A program made the translations under genes and the position numbers. A stretch of 64,000 nt of DNA from Elusimicrobiota bacterium (GTDB lineage Bacteria; Elusimicrobiota; Elusimicrobia; Elusimicrobiales; UBA9959), in NCBI GenBank assembly GCA_037137395.1, contig JBAXKK010000002.1, forward strand, positions 31,881 through 95,880, written 5' to 3'. Shown here in pieces: positions 5,262-58,935 of the stretch. Under the pieces are notes generated by a model. The model had not been told where the DNA came from. It did not search any database and worked only from the letters and a program-made list of their open reading frames with translations. Each line of letters starts with the position of its first letter. Positions within the stretch are counted from its first letter, which is position 1.

Positions 5262-6473
5262 ATGAATATCTCCAGATTTAAAATTATCGCGATACTGCTC
5301 GCGGTCTTCGTGGCGGGCGCGGGGGTATTCGCCTATATAAAATATAAGAAGTTTTCCGGCTATCTCATAGAACAGATAAATTCACAGACTGGCAAGAAAC
5401 TTGGGCGACAGGTTAAATTTAAAAAAATATCTTTTTCACCATTGGAAGGCGTTGTAATAGACGAGCCCTGCGTCTCCCGGGCGCCTAACTTCACAAAGGG
5501 CAATTTCTTTTGCGCGGCGCGGGCCGTGATACGGCCGGAGCTCGACCAGTTGATGAAGAACCGCCTGTATTTCGCGAACATTGAGCTTGAAAAACCGGTG
5601 GTAAAGATCCGGGAAACCGGAGGCAAATGGGATTTTGAAGATCTACTGGCCCTGCTGCCAAAAACTTCCAAGGGGCTCTACATAACCTGGAACGCCCGCA
5701 AACTGACGCTTAAGGAAGCGACACTGGAAATGGATTTAGGCTCTTCCGGCAACTCGATAGCTTTTGAGAACGCCGATCTCACATTGCTTCACTACTCCGA
5801 CCTGGCCGGGAATTTCTCGTTAAGTTTGAGCGGCGACCTGAAGACCATCCTTCAGGGGCAGCTGGTAACTGCTAAAACCTCTTTTAGGACCGACCTCAAT
5901 TTTGAATACACAGGGCTGACCTCCGCTTACGGCGGGGTGGAATTCAGCGACGCGGCCATGGGCGCCGCCACGCTTAGAAAAGCCTCCCTTAACTGGGAAC
6001 TATTTAACATACACAAGCCGGCGCCGGAAAAGAACTATACCGCCGGAGCTAAGGCGGAAGGGCTTTTCATCCCGGCCCAGAGTTGCGGCGCCTCACGGTC
6101 GGTTAACAGCGCCCTGGCGCTGCTCTCCGAAATTATGGGTAAAGCGAGCCCAAGATGCGAAGACATAGAGATGACCAGTCTGGCGCTGGATTTTGCCCTG
6201 AACGACGGCGCGCTGCGCGTAAAGCAACTGAACCTGGACACAAATTTTCTGAATCTAAAAACCACATATGAGCTTAACGGCCCGGCCGGCACCGTGGATA
6301 TGGCGCTAGCCGCCTCCTCCGGCGAAAACAAACTGCGCCTTACGGCCAAAGGCGCTATGGATAAACCCGAAATACTGCCGGTTATGTCCGTCACCCTTAA
6401 CCGCAAATTGATCGGTGTCGTGCGTGATATCAACGCCGCATTCTTGAAAGCATTCCCGATTGCTGGCAAGTGA
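5262..6473 (+). CDS. membrane-anchored AsmA-like protein
   Basis: ORF 5223..6473. Start chosen at MNISRFKIIAILLAVFVAGAG (N-terminal TM helix). The AsmA-family call rests on architecture and weak sequence similarity. Confidence 0.45.
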   Translation: MNISRFKIIAILLAVFVAGAGVFAYIKYKKFSGYLIEQINSQTGKKLGRQVKFKKISFSPLEGVVIDEPCVSRAPNFTKGNFFCAARAVIRPELDQLMKNRLYFANIELEKPVVKIRETGGKWDFEDLLALLPKTSKGLYITWNARKLTLKEATLEMDLGSSGNSIAFENADLTLLHYSDLAGNFSLSLSGDLKTILQGQLVTAKTSFRTDLNFEYTGLTSAYGGVEFSDAAMGAATLRKASLNWELFNIHKPAPEKNYTAGAKAEGLFIPAQSCGASRSVNSALALLSEIMGKASPRCEDIEMTSLALDFALNDGALRVKQLNLDTNFLNLKTTYELNGPAGTVDMALAASSGENKLRLTAKGAMDKPEILPVMSVTLNRKLIGVVRDINAAFLKAFPIAGK

Positions 6474-8831: not shown

Positions 8832-8878
8832 ATTGCGAGTGAATGGACCATCATATTTTCCAATTTGCCACTCGCAAT
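8832..8878. repeat. inverted repeat attgcgagtg / cactcgcaat (CGAGTG word family)
   Basis: Perfect 10-bp arms at 8832-8841 and 8869-8878. Followed by a second hairpin atgcttaa/ttaagcat. Confidence 0.7.
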
Positions 8879-9333: not shown

Positions 9334-10613
9334 AATTCATCTGTGAATACGCGTTATCGCGCGGTTCAGGCCCTGTCGAAAGCGGACCCTGCTCCGTAGC
9401 GCTTTCCGAAGAGGTCCTGACGCTTTTACCAAGCGGCGCCCAGCCGCTTATCATTCCCTGGGAAGAAATCACGATGTTCTCGCTTGCGGATTTCAAGGCG
9501 GATCTTGCCCTGAGGCAGACCTCTTTGACAATAAGTTCTCTCGGATACAAATTCGAGGACTTCGCGCGTCACGCCGCCAGACTGCGCAACGAACGACTGC
9601 TGAAACTTAGCTTGGCGGAGGAACCATTAAGAACATCCATGATCGAAGCGGATTTGACATACAAATCTCCCGCCATGGAATTCACCTGCCGCTGCGAATT
9701 GCGCATATATGAAACCTCTCTCGTGGCTCTGCCCGAAACTGCCGACTTCCTTCGCCTCCCTTTCCGTTGTATCACAGAATTGAAAGAAGACGATTTCAGC
9801 GGTGAGCTAACCGGAGAAAGCGGGGAACACTGGTTTTTAAGCGGACTTGGCCGTAATTGTGATCATTTCAGGGATTCCTTACACGCGCAGATGGCGGACC
9901 TGGACCTATTCGCGCAGAAAGCACTGGGAGCAGCACTGCCTGGGGTTTCGCCTCTTGATTTGCGCGCCCTGTCCGCGCTCTCGCGCGAGGGACGCCTGAT
10001 CCCTCTCACGGAGCTGGATAAAATCAGACCCGGGGCCTGGGCCGCCATCGAAAAACGCATATGCTCAAACAAGGCCGACGCCGCTGAATATAATTTCCTT
10101 AAAAAGATTTCTGACACGGAGAAAACGGCCTTTGGCGTAAAAAAAGGCGTTATGGGGAAACTTAGCGGGGACCATTACATATTCCTGTTCTGCGCGAAAA
10201 ATCTGTCACCGGTTGTCATGGTCGAATCTTTTCTGCTGGAACCGAAGAGCGAACACGCCACCGATAAAACGGCCACCTACATCTACCGCCTCCCCAACGG
10301 CGGAAAAGACCCTTGGGCGGACTTCCTTTCATTCTTCAACCGCGCCATGACAGCGGTGAATTTCAGACGCATGCCGGTACTGTTATCCGATGCCCGCCTG
10401 GCCGACCCAAAGAACGCGATTTACGCCGGTGCGTTGGCGCGAGTGCCTGAACTGAAAACCCTGAGGCAGCTATATGTGGGGCGGGCTATACATACCGAAA
10501 CGGAACAGTGGGAAACGACCGTGTACGATCTTCTGCAATTCGCTGTCAAGAATCCGGCCCCGTGCGCCAGATGGAGAGCGAGTGAAGAAGAAGTTAAAGA
10601 GGAGGAACAATGA
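9330..10613 (+). CDS. hypothetical protein with internally duplicated N-terminal domain
   Basis: 427 aa. ATGA overlap with the upstream and downstream genes. Two similar ~75-aa segments (see findings). No family recognised. Confidence 0.5.
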   Translation: MKFICEYALSRGSGPVESGPCSVALSEEVLTLLPSGAQPLIIPWEEITMFSLADFKADLALRQTSLTISSLGYKFEDFARHAARLRNERLLKLSLAEEPLRTSMIEADLTYKSPAMEFTCRCELRIYETSLVALPETADFLRLPFRCITELKEDDFSGELTGESGEHWFLSGLGRNCDHFRDSLHAQMADLDLFAQKALGAALPGVSPLDLRALSALSREGRLIPLTELDKIRPGAWAAIEKRICSNKADAAEYNFLKKISDTEKTAFGVKKGVMGKLSGDHYIFLFCAKNLSPVVMVESFLLEPKSEHATDKTATYIYRLPNGGKDPWADFLSFFNRAMTAVNFRRMPVLLSDARLADPKNAIYAGALARVPELKTLRQLYVGRAIHTETEQWETTVYDLLQFAVKNPAPCARWRASEEEVKEEEQ

Positions 10614-20406: not shown

Positions 20407-20428
20407 GACAGCGCTAAAGCGCTGTCCT

Positions 20429-20586
20429 GCCATATGCCATAAGCTATAGGCCATACGCGGAAAGTACAATTATACGCCTTAAGCTTTATCGTATTATGAA
20501 GCGCATCATTGAAAGTCCTTTTACTACTTAAATTTTAAGTTTCTGCGTATGGCCTATAGCGTATAGCTTATGGCAATAGCAATAAC
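20429..20586. repeat. heptamer array GCCNTAN with inverted arm (long imperfect palindrome)
   Basis: gccatat gccataa gctatag gccatac gcggaaa at 20429-20463. Reverse-complement arm ctgcgtatggcctatagcgtatagcttatggcaatagc at 20543-20580. Confidence 0.85.
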
Positions 20587-20609
20587 CACACTAACTACAG
20601 GACCAAATT

Positions 20610-23412: not shown

Positions 23413-23515
23413 GCCATTAGCCATATGCTCTAGGCCATACGCAGAAACACTGTTAGTTGCCATAAGCATTCACTTCTAAACTTTTCTGCAAATGGCAAAT
23501 GGCCAACGGCTTACA
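23413..23515. repeat. heptamer array GCCNTAN with inverted arm
   Basis: gccatta gccatat gctctag gccatac gcagaaa at 23413-23447. Inverted arm tgcaaatggcaaatggccaacggcttac at 23488-23515. Confidence 0.8.
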
Positions 23516-23528
23516 GCAACAACGTAAT

Positions 23529-24227
23529 ATGACTGAAGGCCTTATAATCGAAACTCATCCGCTCGACGCTTATCAACAAATGGCGGCGGATGAAGTCCTT
23601 TGCGACGCGCTGCTTTCCCCTTACACCCTGCGCTTTTACAACTGGAGCGGGCCGGCCGTAACCTTCGGATATTCACAGCGTATCTTATCGGTGCGCTCTG
23701 CGGTCGGCCCTGAGAAGGTCACCTGGCCCATGACGCGCCGGCCTACCGGCGGCGGGATCGTCTTACATGAAAGCGATCTCACCTTCTCCTTCATCTTCCA
23801 CCAGCCCGGAGCTTATTTCGAGCCGGCAAAAACATATGACCGCCTGCACCGCGCCATAACCGGTGGCTACGCGGGAGCGGGAATCAGTTTTGATTTGCTT
23901 AAAGAAAACACCATTGACTACAAAACCAACAACCCCGTAATGGACTGCTTCGCTAAGCCGGTAAATCTGGATATTATGTATAATAAGAAAAAAGTGCTTG
24001 GAGGAGCCCTGCGAAAATTCGGAGACTATATGCTTTATCAGGCTTCTTTTCAGGCTCCGGACGCAAGAAGCAAAGCGGCTTTTCACAGGGATATAATTGT
24101 TAACGCCTTTGGCCTGGAATTTGGCCTTTCGTGGCGCGGCGCCGAATTTTCAGATCGGGAAACGGATAAAGTAAAAGCCCTCGCGCTCACGAAGTACGCG
24201 TCCAGGGAATGGAACGAGCGGATATAA
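23529..24227 (+). CDS. lipoate-protein ligase / octanoyltransferase family protein (BPL_LplA_LipB domain)
   Basis: ORF 23499..24227. I prefer the second Met (MTEGLI) because the first 10 codons are repeat-array sequence. Contains RRPTGGGIVLHE and KKVLGGALR motifs. Confidence 0.7.
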   Translation: MTEGLIIETHPLDAYQQMAADEVLCDALLSPYTLRFYNWSGPAVTFGYSQRILSVRSAVGPEKVTWPMTRRPTGGGIVLHESDLTFSFIFHQPGAYFEPAKTYDRLHRAITGGYAGAGISFDLLKENTIDYKTNNPVMDCFAKPVNLDIMYNKKKVLGGALRKFGDYMLYQASFQAPDARSKAAFHRDIIVNAFGLEFGLSWRGAEFSDRETDKVKALALTKYASREWNERI

Positions 24228-24234
24228 CAGCAAT

Positions 24235-24311
24235 GGCGAGTGATTAGTAACTAGTGGCGAGAAAGAAACCCCTTTACCAACAGCCACACGCTACTCACTG
24301 ACCACTAGACG
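24235..24311. repeat. heptamer array NNNTAGT family with inverted arm
   Basis: ggcgagt gattagt aactagt ggcgaga at 24235-24262. Inverted arm ctactca ctgacca ctagacg at 24291-24311. Confidence 0.8.
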
Positions 24312-24338
24312 ATAGCGAAGTCCCAAGGAGAAAAACTT

Positions 24339-24569
24339 ATGATCGCATTCGTATTATGCAAACTGGTAGCCGGTCTTGAGCAGAAGGCCGTGCAACAAAT
24401 AAAGAGCGTGCGCGGCGTAAAAGACGTATACCTGACCTTCGGCGGCTGGGACGCCGTCCTTGTGACGGAATCCGACACCATAGACAAACTCAGCGGCCTG
24501 ATAGTGCGCGAGGTCCGCGGGATACATGGCGTGCAGACGACCGAAACCCTGGTCACAACCAACTTATAA
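24339..24569 (+). CDS. small Lrp/AsnC ligand-binding (RAM) domain protein
   Basis: 76 aa with a stand-alone RAM-like fold pattern (VKDVYLTFGGWDAVL). AGGAGA RBS. Confidence 0.6.
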   Translation: MIAFVLCKLVAGLEQKAVQQIKSVRGVKDVYLTFGGWDAVLVTESDTIDKLSGLIVREVRGIHGVQTTETLVTTNL

Positions 24570-24611: not shown

Positions 24612-25026
24612 ATGGAAAATTCCGGTTTCTCTAATCCTGCCGACAAACTCATACTGATAGCGGACGATGACGAGTCTGTCAGAGAACTCATTGAGTGCGT
24701 GGTGAAGAAAGAAGGCTTCAAGGTGGAGAAAGCCGGGGATGGTGAGGAAGCCCTTCAGAAAGCCCGGCAGGTTCATCCAGACCTCATCTTGTTGGATCTC
24801 ATGATGCCAAAAATTCGGAGGGTTTGAGACGCTCCGCGAACTCCAGAGCGATGAAACCACCAGCATCCCAATAATTATCATTACCGGCCGTTACACAGAT
24901 AGATCAACCTCGGAAATGATAAAACAGGAACCCAATGTCGTGGAATTTATTGAGAAACCTGTAAAGCCCCACGCTCTGACCGCGGCATTGCATAAAGTTC
25001 TAAAGACCCGGCCGATTCAAAAATAA
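24612..25026 (+). pseudogene. response-regulator receiver domain split by a frameshift in an A5 run
   Basis: Frame 1 (24612-24827) gives ...ILIADDDESVRE...LILLDLMMPKIRRV*. Frame +1 from 24814 gives FGGFETLRELQSDETTSIPIIIITGRY...IEKPVKP...*, ending 25026. Removing one A at 24809-24813 restores a canonical REC domain. Confidence 0.75.
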
Positions 25027-25051
25027 TATACCATCTGACAGGATTGTCATC

Positions 25052-31131: not shown

Positions 31132-31203
31132 TGCCGCGAGTTGGGATCGAACCAACGACACCTGGTTTTTCAGACCAGTGCTCTACCACTGAGCTACCGC
31201 GGC
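31132..31203 (-). tRNA. tRNA-Phe (anticodon GAA), CCA not encoded
   Basis: Reverse complement GCCGCGG TA GCTC AGTGGTA GAGC A CTGGT CTGAAAA ACCAG GTGTC GTTGG TTCGATC CCAAC TCGCGGC A folds as a canonical cloverleaf. Confidence 0.92.
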
Positions 31204-34339: not shown

Positions 34340-34445
34340 GTTAATGGCGAGTGAAAGCCGCAGTAATTAATGGATAATGGCTGGGCACGGAAGTATCCGG
34401 AACTGCCGCGCTGTCTTACTGCCGTACTGTCACACTGACGACTAA
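34340..34445. repeat. degenerate word repeats (aatggcgagtg; actgNNN words), includes a 16-mer related to the mocA insert
   Basis: tcttactgccgtactg at 34414-34429 is 14/16 identical to the tandem unit at 48893-48924. Less regular than the other arrays. Confidence 0.55.
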
Positions 34446-48600: not shown

Positions 48601-48657
48601 GACAGCAAGATGGCACGTCAGATAGCAACGAGATTTTAAGTCAGGCGGATTTACTAC

Positions 48658-49347
48658 CTACCAGTTGCGACCAAGTAGTTGTTGGTACTCCTCTGGCGTG
48701 TCAAAATCGCGGATAACACCTGCATCTGCCACCACGAGATCCAGAACTTTCACCGACTGGTGATGCGTGACCCAATGCAGGCCCTTGTCATTGGGGCCTT
48801 CAAAACAAAGCTGAAAATATTTTCGCGGAATAATTATTGGATGCCCGCGTTTGAAGGAAAGAGGATTAACGCCAGCTGGAGGCACCACGCTATCTTGCTG
48901 TCGTACTGTCTTGCTGTCGTACTGTCCTGCTGTCGCGCTTTCCGGGGCCTCGTCACGCCGGCACTTGGGAATAACAAGGAAATCTCTGCTGGATCGCCAA
49001 AAATCGGCTATCAGTTTATAGGTTTCCGGCTTTATTAGGGGCTGGTCAACCAGACAGATCATCACGGCTTCGGACCGGTAACTGACAAGTTTAAGGGCCG
49101 CCCTGACCGAAGCTATCTGCCCCAATTCCGGAGTCTCATTGAAAGCAACTCTTATCTCACCGGGGTTCCAGGCGGCAAGAACTTCCGCGCGGCTGGCGCC
49201 GAGAACAACAATAGTCTCCGTTACGCCCGCGGCATTGACTCCCGCGCAGACCGATTCCAGAAAATTACGCCCGTCATACTCAAGCAGCGCTTTTGTCCGC
49301 CCCATTCTGGAGGAATCCCCACCGGCCAGCACTAAAGCGCTTATCAT
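48658..49347 (-). CDS. mocA: MobA-like NTP transferase (molybdenum cofactor cytidylyltransferase MocA-like) with ~35-aa repeat-derived insertion
   Basis: 229 aa. LVLAGGDSSRMG..K signature, DQP motif and KRGHPIII. The insert lies between IPKCR and KRGHP. Confidence 0.75.
   Translation of the reverse strand: MISALVLAGGDSSRMGRTKALLEYDGRNFLESVCAGVNAAGVTETIVVLGASRAEVLAAWNPGEIRVAFNETPELGQIASVRAALKLVSYRSEAVMICLVDQPLIKPETYKLIADFWRSSRDFLVIPKCRRDEAPESATAGQYDSKTVRQQDSVVPPAGVNPLSFKRGHPIIIPRKYFQLCFEGPNDKGLHWVTHHQSVKVLDLVVADAGVIRDFDTPEEYQQLLGRNW
48893..48940. repeat. 16-nt tandem repeat inside the mocA-like CDS (tcttgctgtcgtactg x2 plus a degenerate third unit)
   Basis: Units at 48893-48908 and 48909-48924 are identical. 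The third unit at 48925-48940 matches 12/16. 3 x 16 = 48 nt keeps the reading frame. Confidence 0.85.
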
Positions 49348-51769: not shown

Positions 51770-51800
51770 TGCTAAAAATTATAGAATCTATTGTAATCCG

Positions 51801-51892
51801 GGCTGTTTGATGAGCATAGCTCTTGATACGGCACCGGCATAGCCTGGGCCGTTTGATGAGCATAGCTCTTGATACGGCACCGGCATAGCCTG
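51801..51892 (+). promoter_or_regulatory. perfect-phase 46-bp tandem duplication abutting the RBS of the DPD/YgfK-like gene
   Basis: Copy 1 at 51801-51846 and copy 2 at 51847-51892 differ at 2 positions. Each contains an imperfect palindrome gccgtttgatgagc ata gctcttgatacggc. Confidence 0.6.
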
Positions 51893-51901
51893 GAGAAAAA
51901 T

Positions 51902-58833: not shown

Positions 58834-58935
58834 AAAAAGTGGTTAGTGACTAGTGGCGAGTGTCAGTATTTGCAATCCAAATGTGAAGATAGCTGTCATG
58901 AAGAATACCCGAACCGACCGCTGTCCACTATAACG
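58834..58935. repeat. heptamer array NNNTAGT family (aaaaagt ggttagt gactagt ggcgagt gtcagta) with weak inverted arm
   Basis: Five units in exact phase at 58834-58868. Partial inverse words at 58916-58935. Confidence 0.75.

Follow-up and report, generated by a model that had tools for sequence, protein, structure and literature searches.

A heptamer-armed foldback between lplA and an asnC-like gene of a freshwater Elusimicrobiota bacterium, probably one copy of a dispersed intergenic family

The gap between lplA and an asnC-like gene in an uncultured freshwater Elusimicrobiota bacterium contains a foldback whose two arms are built of imperfect heptamers. It was analysed within a 64-kb stretch of DNA, here called the window. 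With a probability of roughly 0.6, the foldback is one copy of a dispersed, fast-turning-over group of intergenic foldbacks with about 4–5 imperfect heptamers per arm, the word family being YKAGTGR on the 5' side and the complementary word on the 3' side. In our judgment, this AGTG foldback is a new word family of the known, unexplained heptamer foldbacks of the STRR or Xanthomonas type. The element is probably selfish or near-neutral, dispersed, and shaped by slippage together with block transfer. The features are listed in Table 1.

Table 1. Features of the lplA-asnC gap, of the second AGTG copy, and of foldbacks sharing one loop. Coordinates without a prefix are those of the window.
Feature	Coordinates	Strand	Evidence or remark
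LplA-like lipoate-protein ligase, stop codon (TAA)	24225..24227	+	ORF 23499-24227; Pfam LplA-B_cat
Foldback, 5' (purine-rich) arm	24232..24266	+	five imperfect heptamers, phase NNAGTGN
Foldback, loop region AAACCCCTTTACCAAC	24267..24282	+	folds; alignment of copies and orthologues
Foldback, 3' (pyrimidine-rich) arm GCCACACGCTACTCACTGACCACTAGACG	24283..24311	+	folds; 7-nt inverted repeat CTAGTGG/CCACTAG
Ribosome-binding site AAGGAG of downstream gene	24325..24330	+	sequence; equal layout in orthologues L001, L004, L006
76-aa AsnC/Lrp ligand-binding-domain gene	24339..24569	+	Pfam PF01037; synteny with lplA across Elusimicrobia
Second AGTG-family copy, arm AAAAAGT GGTTAGT GACTAGT GGCGAGT GTCAG	58834..58866	+	21/23 match to the lplA-gap block
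Second copy, degenerate inverted partner CGAACCGACCGCTGTCCACTATAACGC	58909..58935	+	alignment; weak fold, z -0.3 to -1.0
AGGGT/ACCCT foldbacks with loop AAGGAGTTCCTT	L004:1117-1225; L009:9610-9724; L010:7003-7115 and 9905-10000; L040:6938-7040		

The assignment of the host is based on the LplA homologues, which are named Elusimicrobia or Elusimicrobiales, and the orthologous loci agree. The DNA runs containing the stretch are lake or freshwater metagenomes. The gap is 111 nt long and belongs to a conserved cluster, gcvT-gcvH-gcvPA-gcvPB-lplA-asnC-response regulator. The true start of lplA is near 23529 (homologues are 232 aa long and cover 96% of the query). The foldback fills the space from the lplA stop codon to the ribosome-binding site of the AsnC-like gene. 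The AAGGAG motif, 14 nt 3' of the foldback, is left unobstructed by the arms. An Rfam scan gave no family in this gap, its sole match being a tRNA at 31132–31203, and a search of the gap for a promoter or terminator found neither.

The response-regulator gene 3' of the AsnC-like gene is broken in the window (24612–25051). A 71-aa ORF is followed by 224 nt free of ORFs, and the gene of relatives is intact with 137–141 aa. The split indicates a putative frameshift, pseudogene, or assembly error.

At 24235–24311, the initial annotation had read a left arm, GGCGAGT GATTAGT AACTAGT GGCGAGA, and a right arm, in reverse complement, GTCTAGT GGTCAGT GAGTAGC. Both arms are as described. The conserved core is best seen in a shifted phase, in which the 5' arm reads GCAATGG CGAGTGA TTAGTAA CTAGTGG CGAGAAA, and the complement words of the 3' arm are ...CTACTCACTGACCACTAGACG. 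In the alignment, the loop is not conserved among copies or orthologues. Taken alone, the left arm is a weak tandem repeat with 12 of 21 matches at lag 7, and it is not reported by TRF. The AGT loci are undetected by TRF, and custom lag-7 scans were therefore used. The reality of the left arm rests on its inverted partner, its paralogous copy, and the orthologous arrays in relatives. A weak arm missed by TRF could be taken for a chance resemblance or an assembly artefact. Contigs of three runs, however, span the locus without differences, orthologous arrays are present in four independent assemblies, and the paralogue agrees at 21 of 23 bases where none is expected by chance. The orthologous arrays, the run coverage, and the paralogue already refute this explanation, whose probability is close to zero.

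The period of seven is in clear excess. The pattern AGT-N4-AGT-N4-AGT occurs three times in the window (24239, 58838, and 58845) against 0.12 expected. Inverted periodic pairs, among them the locus at 24235–24311, are found at eight loci with period 7, and at one or two loci with periods 4, 5, 8, 10, and 11. The window contains 14 lag-7 segments against none in shuffles, and other periods not divisible by 3 give 0–5. The repeat counts cover 84 of the 98 fetched loci, amounting to 1.26 Mb, or 1.33 Mb when the window is included; the remaining 14 loci were added later. Across the 1.33 Mb, and among periods not divisible by 3, arrays of at least 3.5 copies are most frequent at period 7 (n=57), followed by period 8 (n=17), period 5 (n=4), and period 4 (n=1). 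Adjacent arrays are reverse complements of each other within 0–2 mismatches in 18 of 21 pairs.

Other parts of the initial annotation fared differently. Its arms, its phase, the excess of period 7, and the variety of words stand. The repeat listing of the window bears out that different loci use different words, and the sequence at 58834–58868 is in exact 7-nt phase as claimed. The statement that the family recurs at several loci has to be reduced, as has the kinship of the cgagtg words at 8832–8878 and 34345–34360. These are single units, and GGCGAGTG is seen three times against 1.8 expected, a count equalled in 25 of 100 shuffles. Because the cgagtg words are single and not above chance, the AGT family is present at two loci only within the 64-kb window. 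The closeness to cyanobacterial STRR words was not upheld either. The STRR words compared are CCCCAGT, TTGGTCA, and CAACAGT. In any rotation or strand, the units lie 2–3 mismatches from these words, the most frequent distance for heptamers drawn at random. A distance of 1 is reached by one unit out of nine, with 0.5 expected.

The RNA of the plus strand folds with −20.6 to −22.1 kcal/mol (z −2.6 to −2.9), and that of the minus strand with −28.9 kcal/mol (z −2.5). The minimum-free-energy fold pairs the arms over 24234–24304 in short helices with small internal loops between them. The orthologues differ widely: z is −4.9 in L004, −5.7 in L050, and −0.14 in L006, where the fold is no better than those of shuffles. 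The fold of L050 is a regular ladder, in which 5-bp AGUGG:CCACU helices alternate with 2x2 internal loops. Across 26 foldbacks, the autocorrelation of unpaired stem positions peaks at lag 7. A single strand, either DNA or operon mRNA, is predicted by these folds to form an interrupted hairpin with mismatches each 7 nt. At the lplA-asnC locus, the predicted fold is only moderately better than those of shuffles.

Among 21 co-directional loci, the sense RNA is not preferred in stability over the antisense RNA (8 versus 13, p = 0.37), and at the lplA-asnC locus the antisense strand folds better. Selection acting on the mRNA strand in particular is thus not indicated. A polarity is nevertheless seen in the arms themselves. 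In 16 of 17 word families with heptamer or octamer units, the arm 5' of the loop is the purine-rich one and the arm 3' of it the pyrimidine-rich one (binomial p = 0.0003; 30 foldbacks from the window and L004–L073). The only exception is GCCATA, a neutral family. Owing to the dyad symmetry, the polarity is the same whichever strand is read. Pairing alone does not require it, which suggests a shared descent, mechanism, or constraint. It can be speculated that a C-rich stretch made ahead of its partner would be exposed and load Rho, and that selection against this exposure underlies the purine-first rule.

The junction itself is usually short. In about 35 related genomes, lplA and asnC are separated by 8–30 nt with just a ribosome-binding site, while filled gaps are 89–115 nt long. 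Based on the LplA phylogeny, the window falls within a supported (98/89) clade of six genomes. Four of them (the window, L006, L001, and L007/L004) have an AGTG-type foldback at the junction. The other two, L008 (15 nt) and L002 (42 nt), have lost it; the 42-nt gap of L002 may be a decayed arm. The junctions of sister genomes are filled with AGGGTAG arms (L009) or a period-8 AGTTGATA foldback (L010), and those of other lineages with ACTTACC (L045), AGANGCA (L047), or a 46-nt tandem repeat (L033). The distant Elusimicrobia genome L050 also has an AGTG foldback in the lplA-asnC gap (L050:10703–10785), which seems to have arisen independently. The LplA tree demands at least five or six changes of junction content.

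These comparisons show that the foldback is an insertion, that the junction was short ancestrally, and that the element has been passed down within a small clade. They likewise show that other lineages filled the same gap independently, with word families of their own. Contigs of co-occurring relatives from the same lakes contain CGTAAA-type and GATTCAA-type arrays in the gap, and a variant contig of run X2 has additional AGTG units there. Within the population of the window itself, the Logan contigs of four runs showed no variation in the number of units, although rare variants are dropped in assembly. The diversity of the contents among lineages and among co-occurring relatives indicates repeated colonisation and fast turnover.

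The 46-nt tandem repeat, GGGCCGTTTGATGAGCATAGCTCTTGATACGGCACCGGCATAGCCT, is also found in the window at 51800–51893. It recurs three to four times in the lplA-asnC gap of L033 and in part in L027. It constitutes a separate dispersed repeat family.

The comparison with the nearest relative, L006 (91% LplA identity), shows how the arms change. The global alignment contains one 7-nt indel per arm, so that the arms gain or lose whole 7-nt units, both in step. Another foldback in the window, between gcvH and gcvPA (GCCATAN family, 20407–20609), is orthologous to L006:6949–7124. Here, the left arm differs by about 20 nt (about three units) and the right arm by 7 nt (one unit). A slippage model with a polymerase footprint of roughly 7 nt was proposed by Mrazek et al. 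(2007), as related in PMC4679880. In the outline given there, the 7-nt indels in both arms fit this model and thereby support a period-constrained process. Slipped-strand mispairing, favoured for 7-nt units, would cause such unit changes.

The second copy of the family gives a different kind of evidence. It is flanked by yajQ and an amidohydrolase gene, which are both encoded on the minus strand, and lies 34.6 kb from the first copy. Nucleotides 24239–24261 and 58838–58860 correspond in an ordered block of three units, with 21 of 23 bases in common and no such match expected. In the window the yajQ gap is 106 nt long, against 43–44 nt in L086 and L087, whose YajQ proteins are 98–99% identical. 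The gap of L086 and L087 is without the three-unit block and has about one AGTG-like unit per arm, while the copy in the window has four different units (AA-, TT-, CT-, and CG-AGTG). This contrast shows a recent acquisition of the multi-unit block at the yajQ site. Slippage duplicates neighbours and cannot order four different units at so little divergence; the block was thus acquired from another copy.

Sequences outside the periodic arms are also shared within other families, for example GCCATACGCGGAAA and TATGGCAATA. The GCCATAN copies of the window and L009 have a common non-periodic junction, GCCATACGC(G/A)GAAA, and the common terminus TATGGCAATA. The foldbacks of the AGGGT/ACCCT family share a palindromic loop at different gene junctions in four genomes. 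Slippage and block copying therefore both act. Ectopic gene conversion, template switching, or some transposition activity might spread or homogenise the copies. For the AGTG family, neither a transposase nor a target-site duplication nor a defined end of the element was found. The initial annotation had argued for a period-constrained mechanism rather than copy-paste. The constraint on the period is seen in the period-7 excess, the 7-nt indels, and the lag-7 stem mismatches; the exclusion of copy-paste is at odds with the shared blocks.

A purely local origin would dispense with copying between loci. A seed hairpin would be extended by repeated 7-nt slippage on both arms, and similar words at other loci and in other organisms would have been reached convergently, from a limited set of heptamers prone to slippage or compatible with a hairpin. 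The 7-nt indels in both arms between orthologues, the small vocabulary of units, and the slippage model in its outline (Mrazek et al. 2007) are consistent with it. So is the metagenome contig L096 (GC 48%), where an AGTG array on the reverse strand (~6100–6300) adjoins more than 20 copies of (TATAACC)n, a microsatellite-like expansion of one unit. However, between strains that are 98–99% identical, the copy in the yajQ gap has grown from roughly a single unit in each arm to four different units, with 21 of 23 bases matching the lplA-gap block, and local change would need many substitutions for this. The non-periodic junctions, termini, and loops common within families are likewise unaccounted for, as is the occupation of the equal gap by entirely different families in close relatives. 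A local origin is accordingly quite improbable, and slippage combined with block transfer is preferred.

The family extends beyond the window. A scan of JGI metagenome contigs with AGTGNTTAGTNACTAGTGGCGAG found ten contigs of other organisms, with GC contents of 48–62%, and an 18-mer scan found the AGTG block in one viral contig. In every contig, the block is the loop-proximal end of an AGTG array of 4–9 units. An inverted CACT array follows within about 10–70 nt in six of the ten metagenome contigs and in the viral contig. Several of the arrays are intercistronic, such as that between microcompartment shell genes in L094. In L093, the flanking dehydrogenase is 88% identical to a protein of Candidatus Acidiferrales, and the contig is acidobacterial. 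Verrucomicrobia loci contain heptamer foldbacks of other word families. A plasmid collection contained no match to the AGTG hairpin, and a literature search for the arm sequence returned only chance primer matches. The vocabulary of units is small, with CTAGTGG, CGAGTGR, and TTAGTGR dominating. Therefore, three-unit blocks common in the window and across phyla may converge more often than a naive 4^-21 implies, and identical blocks may partly reflect convergence. That different phyla have the AGTG vocabulary in common still needs explaining.

The closest described case is that of the GGGAATC repeats of Xanthomonas. These are intergenic tandem heptamers, mostly of about four units, and 70–75 cases per genome consist of two nearby convergent arrays on opposite strands, capable of forming a stem-loop (Rehm et al. 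2015, PMC4692102). The AGTG foldback has the same layout of convergent intergenic pairs, and in both the purine- or G-rich arm comes first (PMC4692102). They differ in that the YKAGTGR units are without G3 runs, whereas GGGAATC/GGGANTN is G-quadruplex-prone. Besides, Xanthomonas has one dominant word per genome, in contrast to the many word families here, and the host phylum is different.

The STRRs of heterocystous cyanobacteria are tandem non-coding heptanucleotides with several word families per genome and without an established function (Mazel et al. 1990). The AGTG arrays are similar to them as 7-nt tandem units in non-coding DNA. They differ from STRRs in being found outside the cyanobacteria and in consisting of short, degenerate arrays that nearly always form inverted pairs. 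The TAACTGA repeats of marine Beggiatoaceae, cyanobacteria, and Bacteroidetes occur as 2–6 units in intergenic regions, just upstream of start codons (MacGregor 2015, PMC4679880). Their patchy distribution across phyla suggests horizontal spread, with no known vehicle (PMC4679880). Short intergenic heptamer arrays patchy across phyla are seen here as well, and L097 has TAACTGA-type units beside an AGTG arm. However, TAACTGA is a single exact word with 169 direct sets against one inverted (PMC4679880), while the pairs here are degenerate and inverted and use a different word.

REP/BIME elements and MITEs are dispersed intergenic imperfect palindromes (Nunvar et al. 2010, PMC2817692; Ton-Hoang et al. 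2012, PMC3333891; Delihas 2011, PMC3184786). They are often inside operons and are quickly gained or lost between relatives, similar to the foldbacks here; REPs are not known to have an internal 7-nt periodicity. REP/BIME families are high in copy number, consist of imperfect palindromes of 20–40 nt, and are accompanied by a RAYT (Y1 transposase) gene in the genome. MITEs have terminal inverted repeats, a target-site duplication, and defined ends. Comparison of filled and empty sites with respect to these MITE traits showed that the insertion reaches from the stop codon to the ribosome-binding site, and neither a duplication nor a fixed terminus was recognised for the AGTG family. A further system is the intervening sequence (IVS) in the 23S rRNA of Coxiella burnetii. 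Its stem of terminal inverted repeats contains GACAGAT heptamers in a strain-variable number and is cleaved by RNase III (Warrier et al. 2016, PMC4990558). An inverted-repeat stem with tandem heptamers of varying copy number is common to the IVS and the AGTG foldback. The IVS lies within 23S rRNA and carries an S23p ORF, whereas the AGTG foldback lies between protein-coding genes and carries no ORF.

It is possible that the foldback is a selected cis-acting element, whose periodic stem would serve as a platform for recognition, either in DNA or in the mRNA of the operon. It could uncouple lplA from the regulator genes that follow, as a stabiliser or as a site of RNase III processing, or it could be a row of binding sites for an oligomeric nucleic-acid-binding protein, each subunit reading one heptamer. 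The stem of the Coxiella IVS has heptamer repeats and is cut by RNase III at the first repeat (PMC4990558). The change of one unit in both arms together, the placement always between the stop codon and the ribosome-binding site, the periodic mismatches, and the strict polarity would agree with such a role. The persistence of one family at one gap in four genomes of the clade and in the distant L050 could also mean that it is useful there. On the other hand, about 35 related genomes do well with a junction of 8–30 nt, the foldback was lost from two members of the clade, and the gap accepts unrelated word families. The sense strand is no more stable than the antisense strand, which is the better one at this locus, and the L006 orthologue folds no better than shuffles. 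Since the words vary by locus, a single sequence-specific protein cannot read them all. Selection for a cis-acting role seems unlikely on balance.

A dedicated cellular function is neither shown nor needed for the selfish or near-neutral element preferred here, which probably has none. The element would be tolerated only at sites where no coding region and no ribosome-binding site is interrupted. As a likely side effect, co-transcription would create an intercistronic stem that RNase III might cut or that might alter mRNA stability.

Concerning the origin, the foldback might derive, without the gene, from a small palindromic cassette like the intervening sequences of 23S rRNA, in which heptamer-repeat stems surround an S23p (PF05635) four-helix-bundle gene or a small nuclease gene. 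Full-length members would then supply the mobility, which is compatible with the preferred explanation. The Coxiella IVS has such a stem, with three to four GACAGAT heptamers, a strain-variable copy number, and an S23p ORF in its loop (PMC4990558). In contig L097, an AGTG arm is followed by a 116-aa ORF and then by a CAGT/ACTG heptamer hairpin. This ORF in the loop has no Pfam match. PF05635 is absent from ten small ORFs of the window and from 33 small ORFs of the 11 contigs with the AGTG block, and none is apparent among 212 small ORFs of Elusimicrobia loci in a crude compositional screen. The loop at the lplA-asnC locus is 16–26 nt long, and inverted arrays 200–1500 nt apart in L071 and L073 enclose no cassette gene. 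A descent from such cassettes is unlikely. As an observation in itself, the ORF of L097 (2004–2354) lies next to a hairpin whose CAGT/ACTG units are of the TAACTGA type.

A wider idea is tentative and, as we see it, somewhat unlikely: the YKAGTGR foldback could belong to one mechanistically unified, horizontally spreading class with heptamer arms, present in Elusimicrobia and Acidobacteria, whose machinery reads or writes nucleic acid in 7-nt steps. The rules defining this class may be a purine-rich 5' arm, helices of about 5 bp with mismatches every 7 nt, about 4–5 units per arm, and insertion between the stop codon and the ribosome-binding site. One candidate for this machinery would be the pentameric S23p/Avd-like four-helix-bundle proteins of IVS-type cassettes. 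The S23p of Xanthomonas is a homopentamer (PMC4990558). Such a class, if real, would account for an excess that has long been noted in bacterial genomes, that of heptanucleotide repeats.

The locus can be considered a compact natural experiment. A junction that is normally 8–30 nt long was colonised by different heptamer foldbacks, and one octamer foldback, at least five or six times. It also offers the difference of one unit per arm between orthologues, a recent block transfer, a vocabulary shared with an acidobacterium, and the purine-first polarity. Together these features constrain the models, as neither slippage alone nor copying alone fits. In many bacterial genomes, no other long simple repeats are as over-represented as those with heptanucleotide units. 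These were described as early as 1990, as STRRs, and to our knowledge neither a mechanism nor a function has been accepted for them.

An array of a different period is found elsewhere in the window. A 16-nt unit, TCTTGCTGTCGTACTG, is repeated 2.7 times at 48893–48939, inside a MobA-like ORF (48658–49347, minus strand). The ORF stays open through the array and encodes ...SATAGQYDSKTVRQQDS... there. The inverse words of the array are seen at 48601–48633, in the gap downstream of the MobA-like gene.
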